Of a stretch of 32,000 bases of DNA, positions 1,541-30,425 are shown one piece after another. Under the pieces are notes generated by a model, which searched no databases, was not told where the DNA came from, and saw nothing but the letters and a program-made list of their open reading frames with translations. Position numbers and translations under genes: made by a program. Numbering within the stretch: position 1 is the first letter of the stretch; each line of letters starts with the position of its first letter. The DNA lies in assembly GCA_963704755.1 (NCBI GenBank), contig OY969938.1, forward strand, positions 3,240,001-3,272,000, in the 5' to 3' direction. The DNA comes from an uncultured Chloroflexia bacterium (GTDB lineage Bacteria; Chloroflexota; Anaerolineae; Anaerolineales; Anaerolineaceae).

Positions 1541-1595
1541 CCCGAATTTGAGGTGTCTGTGGGGACGAAGTCCCCATAGACACCTCAAATTCGGG
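1541..1595. repeat. Hairpin repeat, class 1 (arms CCCGAATTTGAGGT...), 26 bp + GAA + 26 bp
   Basis: CCCGAATTTGAGGTGTCTGTGGGGAC-GAA-GTCCCCATAGACACCTCAAATTCGGG. One G.T wobble (1559/1577), otherwise perfect. Sits in the btuF-like leader between the riboswitch terminator and the SD. Confidence 0.9.
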
Positions 1596-1620
1596 TATCT
1601 TAGCAGTTCCGGTAGTTTAA

Positions 1621-1644
1621 ACAAAAAACCTGCCACGCGGCAGG
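1621..1644 (-). terminator. Intrinsic terminator, likely the expression platform of the cobalamin riboswitch
   Basis: Minus strand reads CCTGCC-GCGT-GGCAGG followed by TTTTTTGT (A-run 1623..1628 on the plus strand), directly 3' of the riboswitch aptamer. Confidence 0.6.
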
Positions 1645-1699
1645 AGGAACGACTTTCCTTAAAACAGGATACCGTTCCCAATTACCTTTCCGCGAGGCT

Positions 1700-1865
1700 G
1701 TGGGAACATCGGTAGGGCGGGCGACCTGGCTCGTTTAATCGTATAAAACGATTAAACCTACAGTTGCGGGACAGCGTCGGACTTCGCCCAGTATTCACTG
1801 AGCGGCACCGACATCGCCATTAAACTTTCTCATCCGGGAGTAGAAGTACCCTGACCGAAGTTTCG
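1700..1865 (-). promoter_or_regulatory. Cobalamin (B12) riboswitch candidate
   Basis: Minus strand contains GGTGCC, GCTGTCCCGCAACTGTAGG (plus 1759..1775, the conserved CCCGCAACUGUA core) and a peripheral stem GTTTAATCG/CGATTAAAC. A B12-box-like GAGCCAGGTCGCCCGCCC lies at plus 1715..1732. The GGGAA / GGUGAAAxUCC part is less canonical. Context is the 5' leader of a BtuF/BtuC-like operon beside a corrinoid-dependent rdhA. Confidence 0.6.
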
Positions 1866-2029
1866 ATTTGTAACGATCAACTTTCAAGATATGACAATTG
1901 CTTACTTGCTTTGGGCAGGCGTGTAACACCTACAAACTTACTATACAGCAATCTGGCAGGAGAGTCTATCAGGAGAAATGCACATTTTTGTAAGGGTTTC
2001 TCTGACGGGTACCCGTTCGTGCCTGGAAA

Positions 2030-3112
2030 TCAATCTCCGGCGTCCTGTTTTAGTTCAGCCAACAAGGTCTGGGCCCTTTCGACCATATCGGCTGCTTCGA
2101 TCGACTGGTAGGAAGCCACCGCCGCCTGGCAGTATTGTACCGCGAGATCCATATTATGGACATCCTGGTAATTGAACGCCAGCAGCATTTGTTGTTCGCC
2201 GGCCAGGGCAGTTTCTTCAAGCTCCAGGGCCAGGTCCAGGGACTGGCGGGCGTATTCGATCGATTCGGGCAGCATCTCTTGCTCGGCCCGGACGGCGGCC
2301 AGGTAACCCAGGATGCGGGCCTGCGAGAGCCGGTCGGCAAAACCGCCTGCCAGGGTCAAGGCGCGCGTGTAGGCCTCATGAGCAGCCGGATAGTCGCCGG
2401 ATTGGAAGGAGGCCATGCCGGCCGAAACCTCGATGGTCAGCAGCCATTCCTGATTGTTGTTTTGCGTGGCCAGCTCGCGGCCCTGGTTGAAATACTTGAG
2501 CGCCTGCTCATAGTCGCTGTGGATGGCGTAATAGGTTCCCAGGGCGAAGATATTGTTGATTTGTGCGTCGAAGTGCTGAATTTCGGCGGCCAGTTGGATC
2601 GCTTTTTCGCCGTAATAGGTAGTCAGGCCGGGCTCATTGAGTTGCGAATAGGCCCGAAACAGCCCGCCGATGATGTTGATCTCGGAGCCGCGGTTTTCCA
2701 AAGAGGAGGCGATCACCAGGGCCTGGTCGTAGTGCTTGACGGCGTTCCTGGCATCCCCTTTGGCCAGGGCGGCGTTGCCCATTTCGGTCAGAAAAGTACA
2801 TTCGCCTTTATGGTCACCCTGGGTACGGGCCTGCTCATAGGCCTGGGCAAAATATTCCAGGGCCTGGTCGTATTCTTTCAGGGCGTAATAATCATTGGCG
2901 AGCGTGCCGGCAATGTTCAGCATACGGGAGCTGTCGCCCTCCTGGCTGGCGATCTCGAAGGCCCGCAGCAAATCTGCCACACCTTTTTCGCAGTCTTCCA
3001 TCTCGAACTCGAGCATGCCCATCTGGAAAAACGAGTTCGCACAGCAGCGGATTGTGCTGGAGGTGGGTGGCGATGCCGTTGGATTTCTGGAATGCGTGCA
3101 GGGCCATTTCAT
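2030..3112 (-). CDS. Tetratricopeptide (TPR) repeat protein; probably the downstream part of a frameshifted longer gene
   Basis: 360-aa ORF. From MGMLEFEMEDCEKGVADLLRAFEIA onward it is a continuous series of 34-40-aa A/Y/L-patterned TPR-like helices (ALEYFAQAYEQA, AVKHYDQALVIA, ALKYFNQGRELA, AHEAYTRALTLA). The first ~25 codons look non-native (frame entered by shift). Confidence 0.7.
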   Translation of the reverse strand: MKWPCTHSRNPTASPPTSSTIRCCANSFFQMGMLEFEMEDCEKGVADLLRAFEIASQEGDSSRMLNIAGTLANDYYALKEYDQALEYFAQAYEQARTQGDHKGECTFLTEMGNAALAKGDARNAVKHYDQALVIASSLENRGSEINIIGGLFRAYSQLNEPGLTTYYGEKAIQLAAEIQHFDAQINNIFALGTYYAIHSDYEQALKYFNQGRELATQNNNQEWLLTIEVSAGMASFQSGDYPAAHEAYTRALTLAGGFADRLSQARILGYLAAVRAEQEMLPESIEYARQSLDLALELEETALAGEQQMLLAFNYQDVHNMDLAVQYCQAAVASYQSIEAADMVERAQTLLAELKQDAGD

Positions 3113-3377
3113 AATTGCCTAATTTTTTCAGGGATATTCCCTGGAACCCAAACAGGCGCGACTGGGCCTCTTTATTGTCTGCTTTTTGGGCCAGTTTGAA
3201 GGCCGCCTCGAATTGGGTCAACGCGTCCGGTACTTCTCTTCGGTCCAGGTAGGCCTGCCCCAATTTGGTCAAAGCCGCGCAAATAGCATCGGGATCGCCC
3301 TGCTGTTTGGCTCGTTCGGCCACATTCTGGAGCTGGAGGATCAAAATATCGGGTTTATGCGGTTTGTCTGCATTCAT
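2892..3377 (-). CDS. TPR repeat protein, N-terminal fragment (frame changes near 3030-3060)
   Basis: Start chosen at ATG 3377..3375 (MNADKPHK) with GAAAGG upstream. TPR-like ALTKLGQAYLDRREVPDALTQFEAAFKLA and GNYEMALHAFQKS, then the sequence degenerates into Arg/Gly-rich nonsense while the TPR pattern continues in the frame of ORF 2030..3112. Confidence 0.55.
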   Translation of the reverse strand: MNADKPHKPDILILQLQNVAERAKQQGDPDAICAALTKLGQAYLDRREVPDALTQFEAAFKLAQKADNKEAQSRLFGFQGISLKKLGNYEMALHAFQKSNGIATHLQHNPLLCELVFPDGHARVRDGRLRKRCGRFAAGLRDRQPGGRQLPYAEHCRHARQ

Positions 3378-3426
3378 GGGCGGTATACCTTTCAAAATTG
3401 GAGCGGTATTTCTCTGCAAAAGAGAC

Positions 3427-3514
3427 GGCTTTAGACGGTTGAAAATCCGGCTTTAGACGGTTGAAAATCCGGCTTTAGACGGTTGAAAGTCCGGCTTTAG
3501 ACAGATGGAAATCC
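3427..3514. repeat. Tandem direct repeat, 4 x 22 bp (GGCTTTAGACGGTTGAAAATCC)
   Basis: Units at 3427, 3449, 3471 and 3493. Units 1 and 2 are identical, unit 3 has 1 mismatch and unit 4 has 3 mismatches. Unit 4 overlaps the last codons and stop of apbE. The array ends 50 bp upstream of the TPR gene ATG. Confidence 0.95.
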
Positions 3515-4507
3515 GGAAGAGCGATAAATCGTCAGGTCCTTGGTGGCGAGCATGGCCTCGATGCCCGGCAGTCGTTCGACCAGCGCCAGCCCGGCCGAGG
3601 AGCCGAGCACCATCAGGGTGGTTGCCAGGGCATCCGCATCGGTCACGGTTGGAGCGATTACGGTCGCGCTGGACAGCTCTGCAGGGGATACCCCGGTGCG
3701 CGGATCGATAATATGGTTGAGGCTGTAGTCACTGGTGAAGGCTTGCATATAGTCGCCGGAGGTGGCCACGGCCTGGTCGTTCACCCGCAGGGTGGCCAGC
3801 CACTGGCTGTTGGCGGTAGGGCGTGGGTTGGCCACGCCGATATCCCACAGGCTGCCGTTGGGATGGGTGCCATCGGCCAGCAGATCTCCGCCGGCTTCGA
3901 CCAGGATGTTGTCAAAGCCTTGTTCCTTGAGGGTGCGCACCCCGTAATCGACCACGCGCCCTTTGGCGATGCCGTCCAGGGTGGCGCGCATACCGGGTTT
4001 CTTGAACGCCACCCGGTCGCCTTGCAGGTCGATGGATTGGTAGCCGATCAGCGCCAGTTCGTCTGAAGTGACCGGGTGCCCGGCCTGGTAGGTTTCGAGC
4101 ACCGGCAGCACGGTCACGTCGAAGGCGCCGCCGCTGATGTCGCTGTAATTGCAGGCTTTTTGCAGGATCGCGACCAGGTCGGCCGAGGCGTGCTCCAGCT
4201 TGCCGTTCAGGTTCAGCCGGGCCAGTTCGCTGTCGGATTTGCGATAATCGAAGATATGGGTCAGGCGTTCCATCTCGCTGAACGCGGCGTTGATCGCGGC
4301 CTGGCCAAGCTGGCTGGTCTCGGCGACCAGGGTGATGTCGATCACCGTGCCCATCAACAGGCGCGTATCGCGCACGGTAACATTCTTGGCTTTCAATGAA
4401 AAATGCAGCAGGCTGCTCCCCGCTACGACTCCGCCGGCCACCGCGCAGATTTTGATGAAATCGCGGCGGGAAATTTTTGACTGTGAGCGCAGGGTGCGGT
4501 TATCCAT
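3497..4507 (-). CDS. apbE: FAD:protein FMN transferase (ApbE family), Tat-exported
   Basis: Twin-arginine signal SRRDFIKICAVAGG. ApbE motifs LMGTVIDITL, LDGIAKGRVVD, VEAGGDL, AVATSGDY and HIIDPRTG. Its start overlaps the upstream small ORF by 8 nt. Confidence 0.9.
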   Translation of the reverse strand: MDNRTLRSQSKISRRDFIKICAVAGGVVAGSSLLHFSLKAKNVTVRDTRLLMGTVIDITLVAETSQLGQAAINAAFSEMERLTHIFDYRKSDSELARLNLNGKLEHASADLVAILQKACNYSDISGGAFDVTVLPVLETYQAGHPVTSDELALIGYQSIDLQGDRVAFKKPGMRATLDGIAKGRVVDYGVRTLKEQGFDNILVEAGGDLLADGTHPNGSLWDIGVANPRPTANSQWLATLRVNDQAVATSGDYMQAFTSDYSLNHIIDPRTGVSPAELSSATVIAPTVTDADALATTLMVLGSSAGLALVERLPGIEAMLATKDLTIYRSSGFPSV

Positions 4508-4811
4508 TGAACTGATCTTCTTCCCAGGTTTGAGTCAGGTTGGGGGTAGGCGCGGTCGTGGCTTTTGCCCCGCTTTGCGGGCCGGGAGTAACGGAGAGGG
4601 TCACTTCTGCGCCAGGGGTGGCTGTCGAAGCCGGGCTGGCGGCGGGTGTATCTGTGTGGGTTGCCGTGGAAGTTGGCGCGGTCAGCGTGGCCTGTGGGGT
4701 GGCCGTACCTGCCGAGCCGCTATCATTCAACCCTTGCGCCCACACGAGGACGATCAGAACGATACAGGCCAGGACAAAGCCCACCAGTAAAGATTTTTTC
4801 AGTGTTTCCAT
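4500..4811 (-). CDS. Small membrane-anchored protein with Thr/Ala/Pro-rich tail, function unknown
   Basis: 103 aa with one N-terminal TM helix (LLVGFVLACIVLIVLVW). Tightly packed in the operon: 3 nt after the rdhC-like stop and an 8-nt overlap with apbE. Low-complexity content keeps confidence moderate. Confidence 0.55.
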   Translation of the reverse strand: METLKKSLLVGFVLACIVLIVLVWAQGLNDSGSAGTATPQATLTAPTSTATHTDTPAASPASTATPGAEVTLSVTPGPQSGAKATTAPTPNLTQTWEEDQFNG

Positions 4812-4814
4812 ATC

Positions 4815-6023
4815 TTATTTCGCCATATCTTCCAGGTCTCGCGCGTCCAGCGCCGGGAACTCGGCGATGAAATCATAGACCGGGTTAAGCGGGCATATAT
4901 AGGTGCAGAACGGCCGGTAGATGACCAGGCTGGCCAGCAGGACAATTCCCAGGAAAATCCACTCGATGGAGGTGCCGCGTAAGTCGAACAAGGTGCCAAA
5001 GGGCTCGTAGCTGGCCACGCCCGGCCGGCGCAGCGCCAGACCGAGAATAATGGCCGCGAAGGTGAGCCCGCGCTGGGTCCAGGTGAGGATCTGGTTTAGC
5101 CCGCGCGGCTTATAGCGTTTGGCGCGGGTAATTTGCGCCAGGCACTCCTGAACGGCGCCAAACGGGCAGAACCAGCTACAGTAGGGGTTCTTCGAATCGA
5201 CGGTGGTGACGAACAGGATCCCGCCGATGAGGAAATACCAGTACAGGTTGTTATGCCAGTCCGGCCAGTAGCCGCTGAGCAGGCTGATGATCTGGGCGAT
5301 GGTGAGCGGGGCGGTGTAGATGAACCCCAGCACAACCATGCCGATCAGCAGGGTGCCCCAGCGGATGCGTTTTTTCCAGGTGCTGGAATGCAGTTTGTGA
5401 CCAAAATAACCTGCCGCATACAGCCCCAGCAGGGCGATTTCGGGCAGGCCAAACTGGATAGTTTTCTTATGAGGGGGAAGGGGGGTATCCAGCCCTTCCA
5501 GAGCAATGGTGTGGACCGCGGCGCGGATGGAGGAAGCCACGCCCTCGGAGCTGAATGTGGCTCCGCTGACGGCATCGACGTCCTGCCCGAGCGAGAGGGG
5601 CGAAGTAAACTTGAGGCCGACGAACTGCCCGATCAGGTCATGCTGGAGCACCAGGCGAAAAAAGCCGGGGGTCTCGCGCTGGGTGATGATCTGCGCCCCG
5701 GTGATATCTCCGGCCGGGTTGATGCCGACCAGCATCTCGACCGGGCCACCATACCCCTGGCCCTGTCCGACCGCGGCGTAGCCGGCGATATCCCCATTCA
5801 GGTTATAGCCAATGTAAAGACTGCCGTGGGTTTCGACGCGGGTAGCACCTGGGATCACCTGGGGAACCAGCGGGATGACGTCGGTGCCGCTGGCGAAATA
5901 GCCGAACACCCAGGCTGCCAGGACCAGGATGACCGAGCCGATCAGCACCTTCCGGGAAAGCGGGATGCGTTTCGGTTGGTGGGGAAGTTGGGCGACTGTA
6001 GGGGGTTGATTAATTGCTTCCAT
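4815..6023 (-). CDS. PceC/CprC-type RdhC: NosR/NirI-family membrane protein with periplasmic FMN-binding domain and two CX3CP motifs
   Basis: N-terminal TM, then an FMN_bind domain with the flavinylation motif DAVSGATFSS. This is followed by polytopic TM helices carrying CSWFCP and CTYICP (CX3CP pairs typical of NapH/NosR/PceC). Located downstream of rdhAB. Confidence 0.85.
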   Translation of the reverse strand: MEAINQPPTVAQLPHQPKRIPLSRKVLIGSVILVLAAWVFGYFASGTDVIPLVPQVIPGATRVETHGSLYIGYNLNGDIAGYAAVGQGQGYGGPVEMLVGINPAGDITGAQIITQRETPGFFRLVLQHDLIGQFVGLKFTSPLSLGQDVDAVSGATFSSEGVASSIRAAVHTIALEGLDTPLPPHKKTIQFGLPEIALLGLYAAGYFGHKLHSSTWKKRIRWGTLLIGMVVLGFIYTAPLTIAQIISLLSGYWPDWHNNLYWYFLIGGILFVTTVDSKNPYCSWFCPFGAVQECLAQITRAKRYKPRGLNQILTWTQRGLTFAAIILGLALRRPGVASYEPFGTLFDLRGTSIEWIFLGIVLLASLVIYRPFCTYICPLNPVYDFIAEFPALDARDLEDMAK

Positions 6024-6142
6024 GAGGCGGTATCATTCTAAAGCACGAAACTTACTAATTACAGTGAAAATCATCATATTTCGGTTGGAATAAGATAACG
6101 TTTGATGAAGTGGCCTGCTCGGGCAGGCCTGTGCAGCCGGGG

Positions 6143-6195
6143 CTTGAATTTGAGATATTTGCGGGGTTTTGCTCCGCAAATATCTCAAATTCAGG
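6143..6195. repeat. Hairpin repeat, class 1 variant (24-bp stem, TTTTG loop)
   Basis: CTTGAATTTGAGATATTTGCGGGG-TTTTG-CTCCGCAAATATCTCAAATTCAGG, with two G.T/T.G wobbles. Sits in the spacer between rdhB and the rdhC-like gene. Confidence 0.85.
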
Positions 6196-6216
6196 ATTTT
6201 TAGTCACACAGTAAAG

Positions 6217-6240
6217 AGGAGAGGCGTACCCGCCTCTCCT
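6217..6240 (-). terminator. GC-rich hairpin 3' of rdhB (possible terminator/attenuator between rdhAB and rdhC)
   Basis: AGGAGAGGCG-TACC-CGCCTCTCCT (10-bp perfect stem) 40 nt after the rdhB stop. Only a weak U-tract follows on the minus strand (CTTTAC). Confidence 0.35.
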
Positions 6241-6280
6241 CATAACGATAAACGGAGTTTATAAAATCTCGTTCAGCAGG

Positions 6281-6493
6281 CTATTGTGAGCGGCGCATGA
6301 ACCAGACAACAACTGCACCCACCAGAAGTACAACGGCGGTGACCCAGAAAATGACGGCTGCGCGCGGCTCGAGCTCGGCTTTGCTGGCGATAGCGCATTG
6401 AACCGTGAACACTTCCACGATCAGCCAGATTGCCCACAGTAACCATTCGTACCAGGGGCGTTTCTTGATTTCGATGACGTATTTATCACTCAT
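6281..6493 (-). CDS. rdhB: Reductive dehalogenase membrane anchor RdhB (short, two-helix form)
   Basis: 70 aa, starting 11 nt after the rdhA stop with a GAGGAG SD. Has two TM helices. Motifs WYEWLLWAIWLIV and AELEPRAA match the WYEW / E(V/L)EP(K/R)AA signatures I recall from Dehalococcoides RdhB proteins. Confidence 0.8.
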   Translation of the reverse strand: MSDKYVIEIKKRPWYEWLLWAIWLIVEVFTVQCAIASKAELEPRAAVIFWVTAVVLLVGAVVVWFMRRSQ

Positions 6494-6504
6494 GGTAATC
6501 TCCT

Positions 6505-7932
6505 CTACACATTAATCGTGCTGTCGGTGCCGAGTTCTGGCAGATCCAGGTTCCACCAGGCTTCCTGGTCCTTCTCTACGCCATAGCCGAAGGCATCGTC
6601 CATGGTGCGCAAGAAGCCATCCACCGCCGGAACGGTCAATTCGGTAGCCCGTACCAGATTATGGATCCAGGCTTTGTCCTTCTTGGCGAAGGGGCAGACT
6701 GCGAAGCAGATACCGCAGTTGGTACCGACCTGGCGCCAGAAAGTGGTGCATTTGACCGAATCTTCAAAGTAGGCTTTGTGACCGGGGTTGTTCCAGCCAC
6801 CGCGGGTTTCCCAGGTGGGCTCGTCATCGAAACTCAAGGCGGCGCCGCCGCAGGCCTCTGCGCACTTCTTGCAGGAGTGGCAGAATTTCATGACGCCGAA
6901 ATCGATCGGTTTGTCGGTCGCTACCGGTAAATCGGTGATCATCTTGAACACACGGGTCATGGGACCAAATTCAGGCGTGATCAAGCGGTTGAGGCGGGAG
7001 AGCTCGCCCAAGCCGGCCAGTACGCCGAAGGCAGGAGCGATTGCCAGAGCATTGATGCTGCTTTCGCCCAGGCCCATGTAGCCAATACCGCGCAGGAATT
7101 CCTGCATGGAGGCCTGGATCTGGCGGCTGCGTTTGTAGGACAAAGCGGTGGTCGCCTGCGCCAGGACGGTAGGAGCCCGTTTGAGGGTTTCTTCCGACAT
7201 CTGGATGGTGTAGACGATCATGTATTTGGCTTTGTTGGGGATGTAGCGGGTGGTATCGTCTTCGGATGGCTGATCGTCATCGGTGAAGACCAGTTTCTTG
7301 CCATCGGGGTCAACCGAGTAGACCAGTTTGCGGGTGTTGTCGTCCAGTTCGACGAAGCCAACCGTACCGGCGCCGTTGTGGCGGAAAGCAGCGCGCAGCA
7401 TGCGGGCGGCTTCTTCGGGGGTACCGGTCCACTTGGGAACGCCCCAGTCGTCCGGGGTCTTGGCAGTCTGCGGGCCCAGGAAGGTGCTGTCCATGCGGGC
7501 GCCGCCATTCTGGGCGGAATTGAGGGCCTGGTCTTTGAGGGTATAACCGGGGGTGTTGTTCTTGACACCGTCAGACAGAACTTTGTTGCTTTGAGCGGTC
7601 AGCTCGTCGGACTTATCTTTACCGATGTAGCCGGCGAAACCGCCACCGCGAACGGAACCGATATTGGTGGCCGGGTCGTAGCGCTCATTGAACCGCTGCA
7701 TCTTATCCCAATCGATTTCAACAGTCGGTTTATCAACCGTCTTGACCCACCAGGGCCGCTGAGGGCGGCCAGCCGGGTCGGTGAAGGGTTGATAGGCAAA
7801 GTTGGGATTTTCTGCGGTACCTGTCTTGCTCATCGGCCTGGCCGCAACGCCAATTGCCGCTGCGCCGGCACCCAAGCCAACCAGTTGCAGGAAATCTCTG
7901 CGGCTTAGTTTAGATTTGCCTTGCTCTCCCAT
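6505..7932 (-). CDS. rdhA: Reductive dehalogenase catalytic subunit RdhA (corrinoid / 2x[4Fe-4S])
   Basis: 475 aa with Tat signal SRRDFLQLVGLGAGAAA. C-terminal Fe-S motifs CHSCKKCAEAC and C(x11)CGICFAVCP. GGAGG SD. Followed by rdhB. Confidence 0.9.
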   Translation of the reverse strand: MGEQGKSKLSRRDFLQLVGLGAGAAAIGVAARPMSKTGTAENPNFAYQPFTDPAGRPQRPWWVKTVDKPTVEIDWDKMQRFNERYDPATNIGSVRGGGFAGYIGKDKSDELTAQSNKVLSDGVKNNTPGYTLKDQALNSAQNGGARMDSTFLGPQTAKTPDDWGVPKWTGTPEEAARMLRAAFRHNGAGTVGFVELDDNTRKLVYSVDPDGKKLVFTDDDQPSEDDTTRYIPNKAKYMIVYTIQMSEETLKRAPTVLAQATTALSYKRSRQIQASMQEFLRGIGYMGLGESSINALAIAPAFGVLAGLGELSRLNRLITPEFGPMTRVFKMITDLPVATDKPIDFGVMKFCHSCKKCAEACGGAALSFDDEPTWETRGGWNNPGHKAYFEDSVKCTTFWRQVGTNCGICFAVCPFAKKDKAWIHNLVRATELTVPAVDGFLRTMDDAFGYGVEKDQEAWWNLDLPELGTDSTINV

Positions 7933-7979
7933 TGTAATTCCTCCGATCCAAATAATTTAACTACTTGTGTAAAATATTC

Positions 7980-8032
7980 CCGAATTTGAGGTATTTGCGG
8001 AGGTTTTGCCCCCGCAAATACCTCAAATTCGG
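7980..8032. repeat. Hairpin repeat, class 1 (24-bp stem, TTTTG loop), 47 nt upstream of the rdhA ATG
   Basis: CCGAATTTGAGGTATTTGCGGAGG-TTTTG-CCCCCGCAAATACCTCAAATTCGG, with one A.C mismatch (8001/8011). Confidence 0.9.
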
Positions 8033-8241
8033 TGTTCTTACTTCTTTGGTTAAGCATTTATAAAAAAATTGCATAAATTGCTTTCCAGTGACTATATATT
8101 AGCGTTCGAGCCACCGGTTTTATAGCGGGAAAAGGATGTTCTTTTGTCGGGGATTCTCTGACAAAATGAAAAAAACATTAAAAAGCCGTTACCAATCCGG
8201 TAACGGCCCTTTTGAGAAAATCGCCACCGCTCAACTGCCGC

Positions 8242-8304
8242 AAAAAAGGGGTGTTTTTATCATTTTTCGCGCGCTTCGCACACGAAAAATAATAAAAACA
8301 CCTC
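8242..8304 (-). terminator. Class-2 hairpin repeat (GAA strand is the minus strand) plus U-tract: likely intrinsic terminator of the kinase/regulator operon
   Basis: Plus strand GGGGTGTTTTTATCATTTTTCGCGCG-CTTCG-CACACGAAAAATAATAAAAACACCTC. On the minus strand the three mismatches become G.U wobbles, the centre reads GCGAAGC and the stem is followed by TTTTTT (A-run 8242..8247). Lies 49 nt after the regulator stop. Confidence 0.65.
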
Positions 8305-8352
8305 GTTATTCCCGAACTGGCCTGGATAGGAACGAAGTTTTCGGATAGGTCC

Positions 8353-9006
8353 TTAATCTTCATTCAGCAGGCGAGCTTTGAGAGCAAATTCGACCAGGTC
8401 GGAGCGGTGCTCGAGGTTGAGCTTCTCCATAGCGCGCTGGCGGTAAGTCTCGATGGTTTTTGCGCTGAGGAAGAGCTTGTCGCCGATCTCGCGGCTGTTG
8501 AAGCCTTTGGCGGTCAATTTTATGACTTCTTGCTCGCGTTTGGAGAGGGCCTCGAATTGCTCGGTCAGGGGGTGGTCGCTGGTGATCAATTCGACCAGGG
8601 CTGTGGCTGCTGCCGGATGGAGGAAGCGTTTGCCTTCCAGGACCGTGTGAATGGCATCGATGAGATCGGTGTGGGTGGAGGACTTGGGCACGTAACCCGC
8701 ACAGCCGGCTTCGATGGCCTGCAGGACGATTTCTTTGTGCACGTACATGGAGAGCACAATGATCTGGCTCTTCTTGTTTTTCTCGCGGATAGCGCGGATG
8801 GCATTGACCCCGTTCATGTCCGGCAAGCCCAGGTCCATGACGATGATATCCGGCACCAGATCGACCCCCATCTGGATGCCTTGGGCGCCGGTGTCGGCCT
8901 CGGCCACGACCCGCATATTTTCTTCGCTTTCGAGCAGGGCTTTCAGCCCATCCCGCAACATTTTATGGTCGTCAACCAGCAAAATGGAGATTTCGTTGGA
9001 ATTCAT
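8353..9006 (-). CDS. Response regulator, NarL/FixJ family (REC + LuxR-type HTH)
   Basis: 217 aa. Receiver motifs LLVDDH, IIVMDLGLPDMNG and SMYV..K. C-terminal LSKREQEVIKLTAKGFNSREIGDKLFLSAKTIETYRQRAMEKL. ATGA start/stop overlap with the kinase gene. Confidence 0.9.
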   Translation of the reverse strand: MNSNEISILLVDDHKMLRDGLKALLESEENMRVVAEADTGAQGIQMGVDLVPDIIVMDLGLPDMNGVNAIRAIREKNKKSQIIVLSMYVHKEIVLQAIEAGCAGYVPKSSTHTDLIDAIHTVLEGKRFLHPAAATALVELITSDHPLTEQFEALSKREQEVIKLTAKGFNSREIGDKLFLSAKTIETYRQRAMEKLNLEHRSDLVEFALKARLLNED

Positions 9007-10622: not shown

Positions 10623-10719
10623 TTACTCTCCCTCGATATGTAGCGCTTCCAGAGGACGGAGCTACCCACACAGTGCCGCATTAGTATACTTGTAACTGCT
10701 CAGCCTGGCGGGGAAGAAA

Positions 10720-10773
10720 CCCGAATTTGAGGTATGTGTGGGGGCTTAGCCCCGCACGTACTTCAAATTCGGG
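10720..10773. repeat. Hairpin repeat, class 1 (24-bp stem with three G.T wobbles, 6-nt loop)
   Basis: CCCGAATTTGAGGTATGTGTGGGG-GCTTAG-CCCCGCACGTACTTCAAATTCGGG, about 100 nt upstream of the kinase start. Confidence 0.9.
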
Positions 10774-10845
10774 AACTTCTTAACAGGAGCCTGAGTAGTT
10801 ATGTATACTTCTATTTTACAGTTGTCAGATCATCATCGTCCTATT

Positions 10846-13119: not shown

Positions 13120-13171
13120 CGTTTTCCCTCCTGCTGCTTACATTTATTCTGGGTTACTACTCAGGTTAGTT

Positions 13172-13226
13172 CGGGAATTTTATTGTTTTTCGCTTGCGAA
13201 GCAAGCGAAAAACAATAAAATTCCCG
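13172..13226. repeat. Hairpin repeat, class 2 (perfect 26 bp + GAA + 26 bp)
   Basis: CGGGAATTTTATTGTTTTTCGCTTGC-GAA-GCAAGCGAAAAACAATAAAATTCCCG with no mismatch. Lies between the VOC stop and the GH5 start. Confidence 0.95.
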
Positions 13227-13252
13227 CCTCTTTTGTGGTAGCTGAATAGGTA

Positions 13253-13726
13253 CTATCCCTGCTGGTAAGCTCGTTTTAATTCGGAAATATTTAATTTGGT
13301 CATCTGGAGCATGGCCTTTGTAACCCTGGCGGCTTTTTCGGGGTCCGGGTCGCCCAACAGCTCACCCAATATCGTTGGGACGATTTGCCAGGACACGCCG
13401 AATTTATCTGTCAGCCAGCCGCATTGGCTTTTCTCGCCGCCTTCGGAGAGTCTTTCCCATAAGTCATCCACTTCGGCCTGGTCGGCGCAGTTGACGAAGA
13501 ACGAAATGGCCGGGGTGAAAGAAAACACCGGCCCGCCGTTGAGCGCGATGAATTCCTGGCCGGCGATCTGGAAGGTGCCGGTCATGACCGTCCCGGGTGT
13601 CCCGGGGCCTTCGCTGCCGTAGCGCGCCACCGACACGATTTTGGAATCTTTGAAGATGGAGGTGTAGAACTCCATGGCCTCTTCGGCGCGGTTGTCAAAC
13701 CATAAGAAGGGGGTAATTTTTTGCAT
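13253..13726 (-). CDS. VOC family protein, PhnB-like (3-demethylubiquinone-9 3-methyltransferase-type fold)
   Basis: Start moved to ATG 13726..13724 ([25 protein letters not shown]) with GGAG 8-11 nt upstream. C-terminal [16 protein letters not shown] is typical of this family. The 34 upstream codons of the ORF track look non-native. Confidence 0.8.
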
Positions 13727-13891
13727 CTTATTTACTCCGAACCGATATGATTGGGGGTGATATCCACTCTGGATCCCTGGTATGGATATTCGAAGGGAAA
13801 TTCTTGTATAAGCTTGTTTGGTTATCAATTATAAATTATTTATCAGATTAGTAATATTGAGATCGTTGAAAGAGTCACTTGTTGACAAAAG

Positions 13892-13946
13892 ATATGGGGG
13901 ATATGGGGTGGCGCGGCGAAGCCGCGCCACCCCATATCCCCCATAT
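13892..13946. repeat. Hairpin repeat, class 3 (perfect 26 bp + GAA + 26 bp), core of a nested 133-bp palindrome (13853..13985)
   Basis: ATATGGGGGATATGGGGTGGCGCGGC-GAA-GCCGCGCCACCCCATATCCCCCATAT. Outer arms AATATTGAGATCGTTGAAAGA (13853..13873) and the reverse complement of 13964..13985 (AATATTAGAGGGTGTTGAAAGA) also pair. Confidence 0.95.
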
Positions 13947-14323
13947 TTCTTTAAGCGAAGGTATCTTTCAACACCCTCTAATATTGGAAACTTCCCAGGC
14001 AGGTTCATGAATAGAGGGGGATTGAAAAGAAGTTTTCCGGAAATAAGGCGAGGACAACTTAATGAAGCGCGATTGTGCTGACCTAATTAAGAATCCTGTA
14101 AGGAATTTGAACTTTTTTCGTAATAAATGCTTCAGATTCTTTATCTAGACTGAATACAAACACTTTGGAAAACAGATACGTGAGTAATACGAAATATACC
14201 GTGCAGTCTTCTTTACGCCAGCATAGCTCAGGCGCGGAGAAGGGAGTCTCTATGATTTTTGTCAGGGATGGTTATATGCAATTGCTAATTAAACCAATCC
14301 AGTGAATTTAAATGGAGGTTATC

Positions 14324-17263: not shown

Positions 17264-17437
17264 GATTGATCCTTGTAACCGCTCAGCTTACGCCAGAACC
17301 TCCCGAATCTGGGGTTCTTTTCATAAAACCGGGCAGTTATCTTCCCTTTCTAGCTTGGCGTTTTCAACGGAGGTTTCGAACAATTTTCTCACAGAAAAGG
17401 AGCTATTTAACGCCAGTTCGGGAATAATTTTGGTCTT

Positions 17438-18637: not shown

Positions 18638-18875
18638 ACCTTATTCTCCGTATCCTGTTCTTTCGAGTGGCCTTGCGCCGGCCTGGATTTCTTCGATTGT
18701 ATATTTATTAAACACCTCCCGGGTTAAAAACTGGACAGGGAAAAAGGGGGAAGGATATTTTTATCCGTAAGGCTTTTCTTGTGATTCGGGTGATTCCTGC
18801 CGCTCCCTCGGGAAATTTTGGGCGGGGTGCCGTTATAATAATTGAAGCATTGCAACAGCCCAGGCTAAAGAGTTT

Positions 18876-18926
18876 CCCGAATTGAGGTGTGTGCAGGGTT
18901 TTCAACCGCACACACCTCAATTCGGG
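18876..18926. repeat. Hairpin repeat, class 1 (19-bp perfect stem, 13-nt loop)
   Basis: CCCGAATTGAGGTGTGTGC-AGGGTTTTCAACC-GCACACACCTCAATTCGGG, in the divergent spacer between the hydrolase and recQ. Confidence 0.9.
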
Positions 18927-18982
18927 GTTCCTTTCCATCAGGTTTTGTAATCAAACTTAACGATCGATTTTTGAAGCAATCT

Positions 18983-21202: not shown

Positions 21203-21432
21203 TTTCTCCACTTTTTTTGAAAGCTGATTTCTCTTTTAAAATATCTGGAAGAGATAATCAAGTTAAACTGATCTTGGCTGATATTAGCAGGTAAGAATTT
21301 TCTAACCATATGCGATAAATGTAAAATAATGGTCATGCTGAGAAGACACTATATTTGAAAAATATAAAGAGCCTCGGTGTTCAATAAAGGCCTATTTTCA
21401 ATCTTGTCTGATAAAAAACACTTTAATAGGTA

Positions 21433-21460
21433 TTGTCTAGATTCGTCAAACATGTATAAT
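21433..21460 (+). promoter_or_regulatory. Sigma70-like promoter candidate for the island gene
   Basis: TTGTCT (21433..21438), 16-nt spacer, TATAAT (21455..21460), about 125 nt upstream of ATG 21586. Sequence match only. Confidence 0.3.
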
Positions 21461-21585
21461 CTTCTTTCGAGGAATTTTTTTGTCTTACATCTTTCTGGTT
21501 TAGCTTATTGTTTCCGAATTTCAGGAAATGAGCCATTCTAAATGCGCGTACTAAAAGCAACAACATCTTAAACAAAGGGAAAGAA

Positions 21586-22905: not shown

Positions 22906-22934
22906 AAAGCTTGAATTTATTCCTTTGTTGCTGA

Positions 22935-23516: not shown

Positions 23517-23591
23517 ACCAATGCCTCCGGATATCGGGACAACAGACTTTCCACCCGGTCGACGCGGGCGTAGGCGTGTTCCTCAAGAAAT

Positions 23592-24620
23592 TTATCCCTT
23601 TAGCTCTTCGAACGCCGCCTGAAATTCCCGATCCATCCTGGCCTTCTCCCCTTCCGGCAGCAGGGTCGCGTGGACCGCGTTGAGCGCCAGGTGCCGGATG
23701 GTGGCCTGGTCCCAACCGAAGGCTTGTTGCGCTATCCTAAATTCATTCGTCAGGCTGGTGTCGAACATGGGCGGGTCGTCGCTGTTGAGGGTAATGTATA
23801 AACCCGCCTCCATCAAACGCGGCAGGCTGTGCTCGGCCAGGGAGGGGAATACTTTCAGGCAGACGTTGCTGCTGGGGCATACTTCCAATGGAATTTGCTG
23901 CTGGCGTAGATAGTCCAGCAAGTCGGGGTCTTCCACTGCCCGCACGCCGTGACCAATGCGCCGGCTGTCGGCCACACGCAGTGCGCTCCAGATGCTCTGG
24001 GGTCCCTCCGTTTCGCCTGCGTGTAAGATACAGGGAATGCCGGCGCTCCTGACCTTATCGAAAGCCGCTTGAAACTTTTCCGGGGGATTGTTGTGCTCGG
24101 GCCCGCCCAGCCCCAGGGCGATCACACCGTCGCCATAGCCGGCGATGACCCAGTCGGCGACGGTTTCTCCTTCTGCCGGGGTGATCTCGCGCGGGATATC
24201 CATAATGATGCCCATCCGTACCCCCAGGGCTTTTTCACCCCAGGCGCGGGCCCGGTTGACGGCCGCCAGTTGCTCGTGAAAACCCAGGCGATGGATCAGA
24301 TACTGGTTATAGGGGGTGAAAGTGACTTCGCTGTACACAATGTTTTGATCGGCCTGGTTTTGCAGAAACTCGCGGGCGATCAGCTCGATATCGTCCGCGG
24401 TCTGCAGACAGCTTGCAATGGCGTGATAGATCTCGATAAAATGATCGAAATCCCGAAAAGAATACCACTTGCGCAACTCGTCCACGCTGGCGGCGGGTAA
24501 ATGCAGGTTGTGCAGCTTGGCCAGTTGCAGCAGCGTCTGCGGGCGAACGGAGCCTTCCAGGTGAACATGCAGTTCGACCTTGGGCATGCGGGTGATTAAG
24601 TCTTCAATCGTATTTTTCAT
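23592..24620 (-). CDS. add: Adenosine deaminase
   Basis: Start set at ATG 24620 (MKNTIEDLITRMPKVELHVHLEGS) with a GGAAGG SD. Metal/catalytic motifs HVHLEGS, ILHAGETEG and TLNSDDPPMF. 342 aa. Confidence 0.9.
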   Translation of the reverse strand: MKNTIEDLITRMPKVELHVHLEGSVRPQTLLQLAKLHNLHLPAASVDELRKWYSFRDFDHFIEIYHAIASCLQTADDIELIAREFLQNQADQNIVYSEVTFTPYNQYLIHRLGFHEQLAAVNRARAWGEKALGVRMGIIMDIPREITPAEGETVADWVIAGYGDGVIALGLGGPEHNNPPEKFQAAFDKVRSAGIPCILHAGETEGPQSIWSALRVADSRRIGHGVRAVEDPDLLDYLRQQQIPLEVCPSSNVCLKVFPSLAEHSLPRLMEAGLYITLNSDDPPMFDTSLTNEFRIAQQAFGWDQATIRHLALNAVHATLLPEGEKARMDREFQAAFEELKG

Positions 24621-24662
24621 GTCTGCCTTCCTGCGTAATTCCTCAGCCAGCGAGGAAGAACA

Positions 24663-24715
24663 GGGGTCTTTTATTATTTTTGCAAGCGAAGCATGCCAAA
24701 ATAATAAAAAACCCT
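24663..24715. repeat. Hairpin repeat, class 2, degenerate (GAA centre, 3-4 mismatches)
   Basis: GGGGTCTTTTATTATTTTTGCAAGC-GAA-GCATGCCAAAATAATAAAAAACCCT, in the divergent spacer between add and the 24843 gene. Confidence 0.75.
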
Positions 24716-24842
24716 CCCCTTCTGAACGTGCTAGAGTCGTTACCTTTCTGCAAGCATTTATACACCCCCTGTTGATCCACGTTAACGGTAAGAGAGTGAG
24801 GGGATATATAATAACGCAGGTCATCGGAAAAACGGAGGATTT

Positions 24843-25370
24843 ATGGATAAAGGAAAGAAATATACCGGGCGCAGGGACCCGCGCTTTGTGACCGTCCGGC
24901 GCGGCGGCACGCTCGAATATCCGCAGCATCGTTTGCTGGCGGCCTGGGCGGCCGACTGCGCGGAGCATGTGCTCGACTACTTCAGCGCACAATACCCGGC
25001 CGATGACCGGCCTCGGCGCGCCATCGAGCAGGCGCGGGCCTGGTCTCGGGGGGAGATCAGCATGACGCAGGCGCGCGAGGCGGCTTACGCGGCCCACGAT
25101 GCGGCCAGGGCAGCCAGCGGAGCGGCCCGTGAGGCAGCCCGCGCGGCCGGCCATGCGGTGGCTACCGCGCACATGGCCGATCACGAACTGGGCGCGGCCG
25201 CCTATGCGATCCGGGCTGTGCGCACCGCTTCAGCGGCGGACATACGTGACGAGGCCGGTAGGAGCGAGTGCCGCTGGCAGCGCGAGCGGCTGCCTGAGCC
25301 GATCCGCGACCTGGTGCTTTCGGATGAAGAGCTGCGCAACCGCAAATTGTGGTCGCTGTTCGAGTGTTGA
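24843..25370 (+). CDS. Hypothetical Ala/Arg-rich all-helical protein (resembles a putative-immunity-protein-like family; uncertain)
   Basis: 175 aa. RRGGTLEYPQHRLLAAWAADCAEHVLDYF ... DDRPRRAIEQARAWSRGE ... AARAAGHAVATAHMADHELGAAAYAIRA is a pattern I recall from widespread uncharacterised actinobacterial/Chloroflexi proteins. Preferred over the antisense extension of the add ORF. Confidence 0.6.
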   Translation: MDKGKKYTGRRDPRFVTVRRGGTLEYPQHRLLAAWAADCAEHVLDYFSAQYPADDRPRRAIEQARAWSRGEISMTQAREAAYAAHDAARAASGAAREAARAAGHAVATAHMADHELGAAAYAIRAVRTASAADIRDEAGRSECRWQRERLPEPIRDLVLSDEELRNRKLWSLFEC

Positions 25371-26237: not shown

Positions 26238-26317
26238 GGATTGATTATACAGTCGATTAGCGGGCGGGTTAAGTCTGCCTTGCGTGAATTTGAAGTTCTT
26301 CTCGGTGTGCTCCGTGC

Positions 26318-27973: not shown

Positions 27974-28342
27974 GACTTCCCCCTTTATGGTTTTGTGTTA
28001 AAAAATGGGAACAGCACTGATGCAGCGAAGTTTAGCTGAAATTTTGTTTGCAGTTACTGGCAGCCTGCGCGCTGCGGACCAAGATTTTGTTCGAGAAAAG
28101 CAATACCTATAAAATGATACTTGCTAAGGCTTTCTCGTCTTCGGAGAGTTAAGCGTGCTGTTTCTTGTTTTCCTCATAAGATAAATTATAAAGTTTTTAG
28201 GAAATGATAAAACTTTGTAATTTTTTAGAATTTAAGGAAAGGAATGTTGGCAGCATTCTCGACGGGGGAGAGGAATAATTTTTCTCTCTGGCAAGCCATT
28301 TCCCCCTTTAGCGCTTCTCCGTGTATGCCCTGGAATGGAACA

Positions 28343-28395
28343 GGGTGTTTTTATTTTTTCGGTGGGCGAAGCCCATCGAAAAAATAAAAACACCC
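28343..28395. repeat. Hairpin repeat, class 2 (25 bp + GAA + 25 bp, one G.T wobble)
   Basis: GGGTGTTTTTATTTTTTCGGTGGGC-GAA-GCCCATCGAAAAAATAAAAACACCC, 43 nt after the DEAD-box helicase stop. Confidence 0.95.
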
Positions 28396-28437
28396 ACATC
28401 TTACAAATCTGCTTGAGGTGTTACGAAAAAAATAAGC

Positions 28438-30069
28438 TCAGGCCAACTGCAAATCCATCGACTGGCGGCGGATGCGGGCGTTGCGCGTGCGGGCCAGTAC
28501 CTGGGTTACCATTTCTTCAGGCACATCCACGAATGAACGGTTGGACTGGATGCTGATCTTACCGATGACGTGACCGGGGATTTCGGCGCGTGAGGCAATG
28601 AACCCGACAATCTCATTCGGGCTCAATCCCTGTTGCTTGCCGATATTGAGCTGCAAGCGAACCATGCCCGGTTCGTGTGAAATTTCCCCCGAGCGAGTAT
28701 GGGGGGTATGCTGCGCGGGTACCCGGCCGGTGGAACGCGGATGCGCTTCGGCGACCTCTTCGACAGAATAAATTGGGCGTTGTTTCTCTTCGGCACGGGC
28801 CACCTTGAGAGCGGCAGCGGCGATGTCTAATGGATCAAAACCTTCCGCGATCATCTTTTCGGCCAACGCACGCTCGCGCAGGCAGCGTCCGCGCTGCAGC
28901 CAGACGGTCACGTTGTGGATCAATTTTTCTTCCCGGATGGTGCGGATATCTTCTTCGCTGGGCAGGTTGGCGCGTTCGATCTTCTTATGGGTATATTTTT
29001 CCACCATTCCCAATAAGCGCCGTTCGCCCGGTGAGACTAAAGTGATCGCTTTACCTTTTTTTCCAGCCCGCCCGGTACGGCCAATGCGATGAACGTAAAG
29101 TTCCGGGTCATCCGGGAGCTGAAAATTGAACACATGCGAAATATTATCGATATCCAGGCCGCGAGCAGCCACGTCCGTAGCCACCACCACCTTGATCTGG
29201 TGCTGGCGAAAGCGCTCCAAAGTTCGTTCGCGCTCATCCTGGGTCAGGCTGCCGCTCAGCACCTCGGCCGGAAAGTTCCGCGCCGAAAGCTCACTGGCCA
29301 AATCGGCCGTTTCCACGCGGGTACGCACAAAGATCAAGGCGCTGCTAATCTCTTCCACTTCGAAAAGGCGGGTCAGCGCGGCGACTTTATCGCTTGATTT
29401 AACCAGGTAATAGCACTGCTCGATCGCTTCCACCGTGACCTGCTCACGCTGTATGGTCACCGGCTGGGGATTGTGCATGTGCCCTTCCGCCAGGCGGCGG
29501 ATGGCGGCAGGCAGGGTGGCGGAAAAGAGCGCCGTCTGGCGCTCGGACGGCGTCTTAGCCAGAATGGTTTCAATATCTTCGATAAAGCCCATGCTGAGCA
29601 TTTCGTCGGCCTCATCCAGTACGACCGTACGGATGGCGTTCAATTCCAGTACGTCGCGCTTGATCAGGTCCAACAGGCGACCGGGCGTACCCACCACGAT
29701 ATCCACACCGCGGCGCAGTTGGCCGATTTGAGGACCATAGGCCTGCCCGCCATAGACGGCCAGCACACGCACATGGCTGTGGCTGCCCATCGCTTCGATC
29801 GCTCCGGCGACCTGTAAAGCCAATTCGCGGGTGGGGGCCAGCACCAGTCCCTGGACGCTTTTCTGGTTGGGCTGGAGAGCATGGATCATGGGCAGTGCAA
29901 AGGCCGCCGTTTTGCCGGTGCCGGTTTGGGCCTGGCCAATCACATCCTGGCCGGCCAACATGAGCGGAATAACGCCTGCCTGGATCGGCGTGGGCGTAAG
30001 ATATCCAAGGTCTGATACAGCCTGCACCAACTGCGGGTGCAGGTCTAATTGGGTGAAATCCGAAATCAT
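28438..30069 (-). CDS. deaD: DEAD-box ATP-dependent RNA helicase (DeaD/CsdA-like with C-terminal DbpA-type RNA-binding domain)
   Basis: 543 aa. Q-motif PTPIQ, AQTGTGKT, DEAD, SAT, HRIGRTGRAG. C-terminal MVRLQLNIGKQQGLSPNEIVGFIA... is DbpA/RRM-like. GAGGAG SD. Confidence 0.9.
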   Translation of the reverse strand: MISDFTQLDLHPQLVQAVSDLGYLTPTPIQAGVIPLMLAGQDVIGQAQTGTGKTAAFALPMIHALQPNQKSVQGLVLAPTRELALQVAGAIEAMGSHSHVRVLAVYGGQAYGPQIGQLRRGVDIVVGTPGRLLDLIKRDVLELNAIRTVVLDEADEMLSMGFIEDIETILAKTPSERQTALFSATLPAAIRRLAEGHMHNPQPVTIQREQVTVEAIEQCYYLVKSSDKVAALTRLFEVEEISSALIFVRTRVETADLASELSARNFPAEVLSGSLTQDERERTLERFRQHQIKVVVATDVAARGLDIDNISHVFNFQLPDDPELYVHRIGRTGRAGKKGKAITLVSPGERRLLGMVEKYTHKKIERANLPSEEDIRTIREEKLIHNVTVWLQRGRCLRERALAEKMIAEGFDPLDIAAAALKVARAEEKQRPIYSVEEVAEAHPRSTGRVPAQHTPHTRSGEISHEPGMVRLQLNIGKQQGLSPNEIVGFIASRAEIPGHVIGKISIQSNRSFVDVPEEMVTQVLARTRNARIRRQSMDLQLA

Positions 30070-30222
30070 TAAAACTCCTCAAACAAAATAAATGTAGCGC
30101 CTATCCCTGCCATTTAAGGTTGTGGATAGACAGGATGGGCGTTTTGATGATTTCAGAAGAACCCAGGAAGGCCGCTTGACGGGAACCTGTCATTCCTCGC
30201 GGAACGGCAGGGGAGAGCCAAT

Positions 30223-30250
30223 AAAAAAGCCCGACACAAAATCGTCGGGC
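30223..30250 (-). terminator. Intrinsic terminator after the tandem-repeat surface protein gene
   Basis: Minus strand GCCCGAC-GATTTTGT-GTCGGGC followed by TTTTTTAT (A-run 30223..30228). Confidence 0.5.
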
Positions 30251-30405
30251 AATCATCCGAAAGCACCAAAACAATTTCCTGACACGAAGGCCCGGTAGAG
30301 CCAAACGAGTTAGTATATCATACTTTTGCGCAGATGATTTTTAATGAATCGGGCTCAATTGGAATCGCCGGGGTGAGGGCCCATATACCCAATTTCTAAC
30401 AGGGC

Positions 30406-30425
30406 AGGGTGTTGAAAAACACCCT
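30406..30425. repeat. Collapsed mini-version of the class-2 hairpin
   Basis: AGGGTGTT-GAAA-AACACCCT shares both termini with element 28343..28395 (AGGGTGTTTTT...AAAAACACCC) but lacks the inner ~35 nt. Its 3' flank AACACCCTCTAAT is also found at 13971..13983. Confidence 0.6.

Follow-up and report, generated by a model that had tools for sequence, protein, structure and literature searches.

The window analysed here is a 32,000-nucleotide stretch of the genome of an uncultured Chloroflexia bacterium of the Anaerolineaceae (GenBank assembly GCA_963704755.1, contig OY969938.1, positions 3,240,001 to 3,272,000 of the forward strand), in which long, near-perfect hairpins recur between the genes. 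By Pfam matches, the genes of the window lie mostly on the minus strand. On that strand, positions 446-10622 are occupied by a reductive-dehalogenase (rdh) cluster, which includes a two-component system, an ApbE protein, a TPR protein and a BtuF-like binding protein; the gene for the last is preceded by a cobalamin riboswitch (1700-1868). An initial annotation of the bare sequence had sorted the hairpins into classes 1, 2 and 3 by their arms and had offered two explanations, a REP-like mobile or structural-RNA family, or de novo palindrome formation by fold-back priming. In the reading favoured here, the long hairpins are very probably the palindromic centres of ~111-bp non-autonomous transposons, namely MITEs (miniature inverted-repeat transposable elements) that have IS66-type ends and 8-bp target duplications. 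The conspicuous density of about one long perfect hairpin per 3 kb would then be explained by a transposon burst and not by a new RNA or DNA-structure process.

Hairpin cores and the elements around them

Every inverted repeat listed in the initial annotation was located at its position, with arms of 19-33 nt that are 82-100% complementary and lie 3-13 nt apart. Our own scan for stems of 19 bp or longer found 10 hairpins in the window and 0 in 20 dinucleotide shuffles of it, an enrichment that marks them as real hairpins rather than chance. All window copies lie outside coding sequence, as had been claimed. The reported centring on CGAAG or GCGAAGC was likewise found at the apex of 1541, 8248, 13172, 13892, 24663 and 28343, and in a small hairpin at 12004. 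GCGAAGC or its complement GCTTCGC occurs 11 times in the window; six of these occurrences are hairpin centres, and the remaining five are within chance expectation. This heptamer forms an exceptionally stable mini-hairpin in single-stranded DNA (PMC13037366).

About 28 nt beyond each class-1 and class-2 hairpin stands an outer inverted repeat that the initial annotation had not reported, GTAACTRCTCAG on the left and CTGAGYAGTTAC on the right. Classes 1 and 2 carry the same outer terminal repeats and share one layout, 5'-GTAACTRCTCAG, ~16 nt, 25-bp arm, GAA, 25-bp arm, ~16 nt, CTGAGYAGTTAC-3', with AT-rich 8-bp direct repeats outside. More fully, the terminal repeat 5'-GTAACTRCTCAG(S)C is followed by ~16 nt of imperfectly paired outer arm, a near-perfect core arm of 24-26 bp and a 3-nt loop (GAA or TTC, usually GC-GAA-GC), after which the mirror image follows. 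The copy at 10692-10802 is bounded by a perfect 8-bp target duplication, GTATACTT, at 10684-10691 and 10803-10810; such duplications, too, are absent from the initial annotation. It folds end to end as a single long hairpin (DNA, -33.5 kcal/mol, z=-8) and looks like the youngest of the class-1 copies.

The spread of the family was followed by scanning one genome per species with the two outer 11-mers of the class-1 core as the query, which gave at least 98 loci. Among the matches listed, at least ~90 class-1 copies come from five metagenome-assembled genomes (MAGs) of Anaerolineaceae/Anaerolinea, and eight singletons in other phyla lack the hairpin interior. The MAG DAIQPZ01 alone holds at least 45 loci, and the 32-kb window holds 10 copies. 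Terminal repeats and duplications were counted in the class-1 matches listed together with the window copies. In this set, 78 hairpins carry a terminal repeat scoring at least 9/12 at each end, for which the chance rate is 1.6% per side; the modal element length is 111-112 nt, and no open reading frame (ORF) is present. Across 76 elements the 8-bp flanking direct repeat agrees at 8/8 in 27, at 7/8 in 14 and at 6/8 in 10, while in the control, taken from the adjoining 8 bases farther out, the commonest score is 2/8. The duplicated targets are 70% A+T as compared with 44% in the background. Core-less copies of 57-70 nt also occur in the MAGs, some of them with perfect duplications such as GATTTATA at L092:4438-4505.

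The stems of the different classes had been described as unrelated, which is overstated for class 2. A sequence-only nhmmer profile built from 40 MAG copies of class 1 recovers all five class-1 window copies (E 1e-23 to 1e-9) and, end to end, the element at 13153-13253 (E=0.014). In register with the class-1 consensus, the 13172 arm is identical at 16/26 positions and the other class-2 arms at 10-13 of 25-26, so that class-2 arms are 40-62% identical to it; only for class 3 (6/26, or 23%, which is chance) does the earlier description stand. A metagenome scan with a class-2 pattern (GGTGTTTTTAT N24-40 ATAAAAACACC) returned 24 matches, among which only L109 looks related, the others being chance matches or other hairpins.

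The elements are short and gene-less, with conserved terminal repeats, a duplication of fixed length, many dispersed copies and empty sites in relatives, which are the attributes by which MITEs are recognized. The terminal inverted repeats and the fixed 8-bp duplications argue for MITEs of a DDE transposon with IS66-type ends, not for REP sequences handled by a RAYT transposase. They constitute an undescribed MITE family of a well-known kind, abundant in Anaerolineae; a literature search for MITEs in Anaerolineae gave no prior description. The window copies and the remaining hairpins are collected in Table 1.

Table 1. Hairpin-bearing elements and related features of the window; terminal-repeat scores are matches out of 12 and E values come from the nhmmer class-1 profile.
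Feature	Positions	Strand	Core	Terminal repeats	Further characters
Class-1 MITE	1513..1622	.	1541-1595, 26+GAA+26	GTATCTACTCAAGC 10/12	E=5e-22
Degenerate class-1 MITE	6100..6210	.	6143-6195	decayed to 6-7/12	E=3e-10
Class-1 MITE	7951..8061	.	7980-8032		E=4e-16
Class-2 MITE	8223..8333	.	8248-8304, AT-rich arms	weak, 8/12 + 8/12	111 nt
Class-1 MITE	10692..10802	.	10720-10773	GTAACTGCTCAG / CTGAGTAGTTAT	E=2e-23
MITE intermediate between classes 1 and 2	13153..13253	.	13172-13226, perfect 26+GAA+26	11/12 + 10/12
Class-3 hairpin	13850..13990	.	13887-13951	own outer inverted repeat	candidate only for the MITE family
Core-less short MITE	17275..17340	.	central palindrome deleted	11/12 + 9/12, retained	66 nt; not in the initial annotation
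Class-1 MITE	18852..18954	.	18876-18926		E=1e-9; divergent intergenic region
Class-2 MITE	24635..24743	.	24663-24715	GTAATTCCTCAG 10/12, GTAACGACTCTA 9/12
Class-2 MITE	28321..28424	.	28343-28395, 25+GAA+25	GTAACACCTCAAGC 9/12 + another 7/12
Mini-hairpin	30406..30425	.	AGGGTGTT-GAAA-AACACCCT	none detected	20 nt

The ends of the family point to its probable origin. IS66-family ends start with GTAAGCG, and these elements make 8-bp repeats (PMC11946415). ISDge4 of Deinococcus geothermalis, a member of the ISBst12 group of the IS66 family with a single 449-aa transposase, is reported to show copy-and-paste behaviour, to make an 8-bp direct repeat and to have GTAACTGCTCAGCA / GTGACTACTCAGCA as its terminal repeats (PMC12898284). 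The MITE ends, GTAACT(G/A)CTCAG(S)C, match these published repeats at 12-13/14, and both elements make 8-bp duplications. Similarly, an element on the Geobacillus kaustophilus plasmid pHTA426 (14.1-15.7 kb), whose gene is annotated as an IS66-like transposase and encodes DDE_Tnp_IS66 and zf-IS66 domains, was read from the sequence to end in GTAACTATTCAGCCC / GTATCTATTCAGCCC, with the 8-bp duplication AACTCGTC on both sides. The MITE ends match it at 13/14 and share its duplication length; they begin with GTAA and have the same G/A difference between the two ends as the ISDge4/pHTA426-type elements. On this likeness the MITEs appear likely to derive from the single-ORF IS66-family group. Unlike the ISBst12/ISGka4-like elements, they are only ~111 bp long and lack a transposase gene, and their 53-nt near-perfect palindromic interior is not known from autonomous elements. 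A single-ORF IS66-family (ISBst12/ISGka4-like) DDE transposase would be the most likely agent moving the gene-less elements in trans. Such an enzyme would bind at the terminal repeats and cut AT-rich targets between genes with an 8-bp stagger, which would account for the 8-bp duplications.

Several points speak against the interpretation as IS66-type MITEs. No autonomous IS66-type element with the MITE ends was found in ~0.7 Mb of fetched loci and the window by searches for paired terminal repeats at spacings of 130-6000 nt, for relaxed pairs at spacings of 1-3.2 kb and for orphan repeats, or by tblastn with the pHTA426 transposase; mobilization in trans is therefore inferred for these genomes. 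In the window most copies are old: their terminal repeats are weak, and they show no clear duplication. The membership of class 2 depends on two good copies (13153 and 24635) and two weak ones, at the arm identities given above, and class 3 (13892) falls outside the pattern of the family. Further, the relatives that supply the empty sites are distant, with a histidine kinase only ~72% identical to that of the window (73% for the nearest available relative), so that the empty sites do not date the insertions.

Empty sites, gene context and rival explanations

The order of the rdh cluster is kept in three Anaerolineae, namely the window and the loci L099 and L100, as GAF/HAMP histidine kinase, LuxR-type regulator, rdhA, a small VcrB-like rdhB (~6270-6490), an FMN_bind/Fer4_5 rdhC-like gene, a small ORF, ApbE and TPR; in the window and L099 the cobalamin riboswitch and BtuF-like gene follow the TPR gene. 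No long hairpins are present in the syntenic rdh loci L099 and L100. In alignments, the 7980 element faces a clean empty site in both relatives between conserved flanks, and the whole 1541 element is missing from the orthologous riboswitch-btuF spacer of L099. The 6143 element is an insertion relative to both L099 and L100, with a terminator that all three genomes share on one side of it and a conserved upstream block on the other. For the 8248 element only L100 is clearly empty, L099 having other sequence there. Thus, each of these four window sites is empty in L099 and/or L100, as expected of mobile DNA. An all-against-all comparison of the MAG loci gave no orthologous insertions, the genomes being too divergent.

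The insertions stand close to the signals of the neighbouring genes. The 1513-1622 copy sits in the 5' untranslated region (UTR) of the BtuF-like gene, between the terminator of the cobalamin riboswitch (1629-1644) and the ribosome-binding site, and the 6100-6210 copy is flanked by the conserved rdhB terminator (6216-6241) and the conserved region upstream of the rdhC-like gene. The 7951-8061 copy is inserted between a conserved promoter-like block of rdhA and the rdhA ribosome-binding site, while that at 8223-8333 lies between the stop codon of the response regulator (8353) and the same gene's own canonical terminator (8180-8212). Further along, the 13153-13253 copy adjoins the stop codon of gene 13253-13726(-). 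The 24635-24743 copy, with a target duplication of 7/8 (CTTCCTGC / CTTTCTGC), lies in a divergent region immediately upstream of the ribosome-binding site of an adenosine deaminase gene (true start ~24620(-)), and that at 28321-28424, with an arm of 12/25 against the class-1 consensus, is downstream of a DeaD-like gene. By such insertions the elements put a 25-bp duplex-forming sequence into UTRs, for example those of a reductive dehalogenase and a riboswitch-controlled corrinoid-binding protein, and could change mRNA processing.

Structured cis-regulatory RNAs, terminators or mRNA-stabilizing hairpins, kept by selection on RNA pairing, would agree with the strong covariation of the stems and with the presence of several copies in UTRs, 5' or 3', of the rdhA gene, the btuF-like gene and the response-regulator gene; hairpins without the terminal repeats are also enriched between convergent genes (24/71). 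The MITE copies, however, are rarer between convergent genes: 38 lie in tandem, 17 in divergent and 6 in convergent spacers (6/61), as compared with 160, 67 and 57 background gaps. Among the matches listed and the window, one MITE copy falls in coding sequence beside the 61 in spacers; in tandem spacers the distances from core to start codon are densest at ~50-70 nt. Relative to transcription the copies have no preferred orientation (17 to 15 when judged from the outer arms; loops TTC 10, GAA 6), and sense-strand G.U-type mismatches are not favoured either (5 vs 10 A.C). In the terminal-repeat pairs the sense strand has a marginal G.U excess (31:15), and element orientation is unbiased. The copies have no U-tracts, and canonical terminators adjoin them at 1629-1644, 6216-6241, 8180-8212 and 30229-30250. 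None of the hairpins has an Rfam match; only the cobalamin riboswitch passes, and the sub-threshold hits are generic miRNA-precursor models. Since, in addition, relatives have the same operon without the elements, a role as selected RNA structure is very unlikely.

The remaining rivals treat the palindromes as DNA. A REP/BIME-like family handled by a RAYT (IS200-like Y1) transposase, which would recognize the palindromes as single-stranded hairpins, is suggested by their abundance between genes, by an outer motif that contains GTAG (CTGAGTAGTTAC) and by the GCGAAGC apex, very stable as a single-stranded DNA mini-hairpin (PMC13037366). However, REP/BIME sequences are 20-40 nt long, lack terminal inverted repeats and duplications and are tied to a Y1 transposase, whereas the 111-nt MITEs have both features. 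Fixed 8-bp duplications and terminal inverted repeats of 12-14 nt are hallmarks of DDE transposases, and the ends match IS66-family elements. A Pfam scan found a Y1 transposase domain in 0 of 28 window ORFs, in line with the earlier remark that no RAYT/IS200-type gene is present, and a REP-like origin is highly improbable. The hint that the GAA strand is the one that folds, drawn from an excess of G.T mismatches on that strand, fails as well, being gone in 64 hairpins (5 G.T, 6 A.C and 14 transversion mismatches). Of the first explanation in the initial annotation, the mobile repeat family is borne out by copies that are dispersed, numerous and missing from orthologous sites; its REP-like and structural-RNA parts are not.

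Its second explanation, in which fold-back priming at GCGAAGC copies local sequence into a second arm, would account for perfectly mirrored arms, indels included, and for the recurrence of the GC-GAA-GC apex in hairpins with differing lower stems, for example the class-3 hairpin 13892 and L022:3570, which share only a 19-nt apex. It is extremely unlikely for classes 1 and 2. Class-1 arms share a common descent in five or more genomes, having the same sequence in at least ~90 copies and travelling with terminal repeats and duplications, and class-2 arms resemble them to the extent given above. Relatives carry neither arm at all four testable sites (4/4), and by the criterion set beforehand, that arms should match local flanking sequence in relatives, fold-back genesis fails at these sites. 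Palindromic operators of a dimeric regulator, such as the LuxR-type response regulator of the rdh cluster, would explain the perfect dyad symmetry and the several copies upstream of rdh-cluster genes. Yet the element adjoins unrelated genes in several genomes and carries duplications, its 25-bp arms far exceed known operators, and the orthologous rdh promoters, which are without the element, share a different conserved block instead, so that the chance of an operator function is next to nil. The interpretation as IS66-type MITEs accordingly stands as the preferred one.

Two non-coding blocks, kept in all three genomes, deserve a record of their own. One lies upstream of rdhA (window ~8090-8170 (-), alignment A2 columns 228-300, TTTTGTCGGAGAAATCCC.ACAAAA ... 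TTGATATGATAT), and the other upstream of the rdhC-like gene (window ~6030-6100, alignment A5 columns 244-320). Both are candidate promoter or operator sites of the adjacent two-component regulator. In the orthologous cobalamin riboswitch region of L099 (18522-18593) there is a different, 33-nt imperfect inverted repeat of AGC(T/A)GAAAGC-like units, which the window lacks. Of the sigma-70-like sites in the window's first half, the one that matches best (10780-10809 (+), TTAACA-18-TATACT, 10/12) is made up of the right end of the 10692-10802 element and its duplication. It is directed away from the histidine-kinase gene, and may be either a promoter that the insertion created, facing outward, or a chance match.

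Mirrored evolution of the palindromic core

That both arms change together in class-1 hairpins had been noticed in the initial annotation, and the observation extends well beyond the window. Across 40 aligned copies, 18 of the 25 core pairs show double changes with pairing kept; ~97% of cells are paired, and there are few G.U intermediates. The indels are mirrored too, as judged from the inner segment of copies found by the outer 11-mers only, a selection that gives no bias toward a perfect interior. Among the matches listed, this segment has an odd length in 87 of 104 copies and an even one in 17, falls into classes of 25, 27 and 29 nt and contains no mismatch in 53. The 18876 core is a case within the window, having the same 1-nt deletion in both arms (GAATTGAGG / CCTCAATTC), with one T·A base pair lost at mirrored positions. 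Further, the old window copies retain near-perfect cores despite terminal repeats decayed to 6-9/12.

With respect to the asymmetric outer arms, the loop is oriented at random. Judged by reference polarity, 25 copies among the matches listed and the window have the same orientation and 14 are flipped; close pairs are divided 64 same to 57 flipped, and nearest neighbours 17 to 16. In particular, L036:1564 and L072:1307, which occupy different sites with different duplications, differ solely by one base and an inverted loop. The pairs L017/L051 and L022:2745/L049:4457, from a MEGAHIT assembly with k=87, show a loop flip together with mirrored core changes. A de Bruijn assembler whose k falls below the length of the palindrome is unable to orient the loop, so that loops in the SPAdes MAGs are possibly mis-assembled; for this reason the claim of loop flipping rests on the k=87 pairs.

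The shared geometry of divergent stems probably reflects common descent combined with concerted evolution of the two core arms. Its most likely driver would be intra-palindrome template switching in replication, in which arm-to-arm conversion copies substitutions and indels and inverts the 3-nt loop, and the d(GCGAAGC) mini-hairpin could nucleate the folding that such a switch requires. Quasipalindrome template switching in E. coli and yeast is known to perfect palindromes by copying one arm onto the other (PMC7202029), and the arm copying and more perfect palindromes that it produces are what is proposed for the MITE cores. Descriptions of that process concern mutational hotspots at single loci; a role in homogenizing arms and flipping loops throughout a transposon family, as sequence patterns suggest here, has not been described for it. 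The mechanism is plausible, and we would give it about an even chance; the alternative is selection on transposition-competent master copies, from which mirrored changes could come with no conversion. In any case, the mirrored arms and random loops provide a natural multi-copy data set on template switching at palindromes.

A more speculative proposal, which we consider rather doubtful, is that the 53-nt core is a dynamic 'flip-flop' palindrome, its arms steadily homogenized in every lineage, mirrored indels included, and its loop re-oriented at random and quickly enough for half of the nearest-neighbour copies to be flipped. If the proposal were true and the process were tied to the transposition cycle, a flip-flop core would add a new mechanistic feature to what bacterial DDE-type MITEs are known to have, possibly arising through a folded single-strand or copy-out intermediate nucleated at d(GCGAAGC). 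It could also explain how the 25-26-bp + GAA module comes to stand between unrelated outer ends, as in class 3 and in a second hairpin family.

Other hairpins, comparable repeats and neighbouring genes

The class-3 hairpin lies in a divergent spacer and resembles a terminator on both strands, the only hairpin here to do so. It has no GTAAC terminal repeat; its flank inverted-repeat score of 22 is above the 99th percentile of the null. With hairpin L022:3570 of another MAG it shares only the 19-nt apex GGCGCGGCGAAGCCGCGCC (L022:3592-3610). A search with homologues of the two flanking genes found no synteny and hence no empty site. The 20-nt mini-hairpin at 30406-30425 may be a collapsed class-2 core; the canonical terminator of the gene, at 30229-30250, is separate from it.

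The second hairpin family has the core CCGCATTTTGGGTGTGAGAGCGGC-GAA and occurs at L030:2519-2571, L016:224-284, L028:517-568 and L085:1444-1505. It has the same architecture, a related core and the GAA loop, and in L030:2519 and L016:224 its outer inverted repeat (TTGGGAGTTGCCGTGGT) differs from the GTAAC ends. Thus, more than one set of ends is combined with the 25-26-bp + GAA module. In some class-1 cores (L026:2960, L031:5744, L062:6148, L048:4726 and L074:3231) an alternative apex module, GCGCTTAC-N3-5-GTAAGCGC, replaces GCGGGTGC-GAA-GCACCCGC, which suggests that the tip of the palindrome can be exchanged.

Comparable repeats are familiar from other bacteria. The Correia/NEMIS elements of Neisseria, the ERIC/IRU elements of enterobacteria and the RUP elements of Streptococcus pneumoniae are non-coding, 100-150 bp long and abundant between genes, have terminal inverted repeats, are co-transcribed and fold into long hairpins. 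Like the MITEs described here, they act as selfish DNA that ends up in UTRs. They differ in their terminal repeats, transposase families and duplications, Correia elements duplicating TA as compared with 8 bp in the present family. None of the three has, to our knowledge, been described with a perfect 25-bp core and GAA triloop, with mirrored arms or with a loop flip-flop.

Many copies lie less than 100 nt from the ends of MAG contigs (L025:7-57, L047:31-83 and L057:33-81, and copies in L035, L038, L046 and L087), so that MAG assemblies break at the family and counts of it there are probably too low. Besides breaking assemblies, the elements swell the numbers of predicted terminators and structured RNAs. 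Further candidates for the hairpins, namely CRISPR arrays, tRNA-linked elements and promoter motifs, were considered and rejected; the window has no tRNAs, and promoter-like sites are not enriched.

Elsewhere in the window, a low-GC island at 20000-24000 (46-50% vs ~55% elsewhere) contains a gene for a DUF4915 protein (21586-22905) and an AbiEii toxin fragment (22935-23300), and is probably horizontally acquired, defence/toxin-related DNA; an Imm5-like immunity protein is encoded just past its right edge (24843-25370). The VOC/3-dmu-9_3-mt protein encoded at 13253-13726 has a single domain and 157 aa, while most of its homologues are tandem two-domain proteins of 293 aa. Similarly, the PKD/beta-helix protein encoded at 14312-16201 has 625 aa, and many of its homologues have ~1095 aa.

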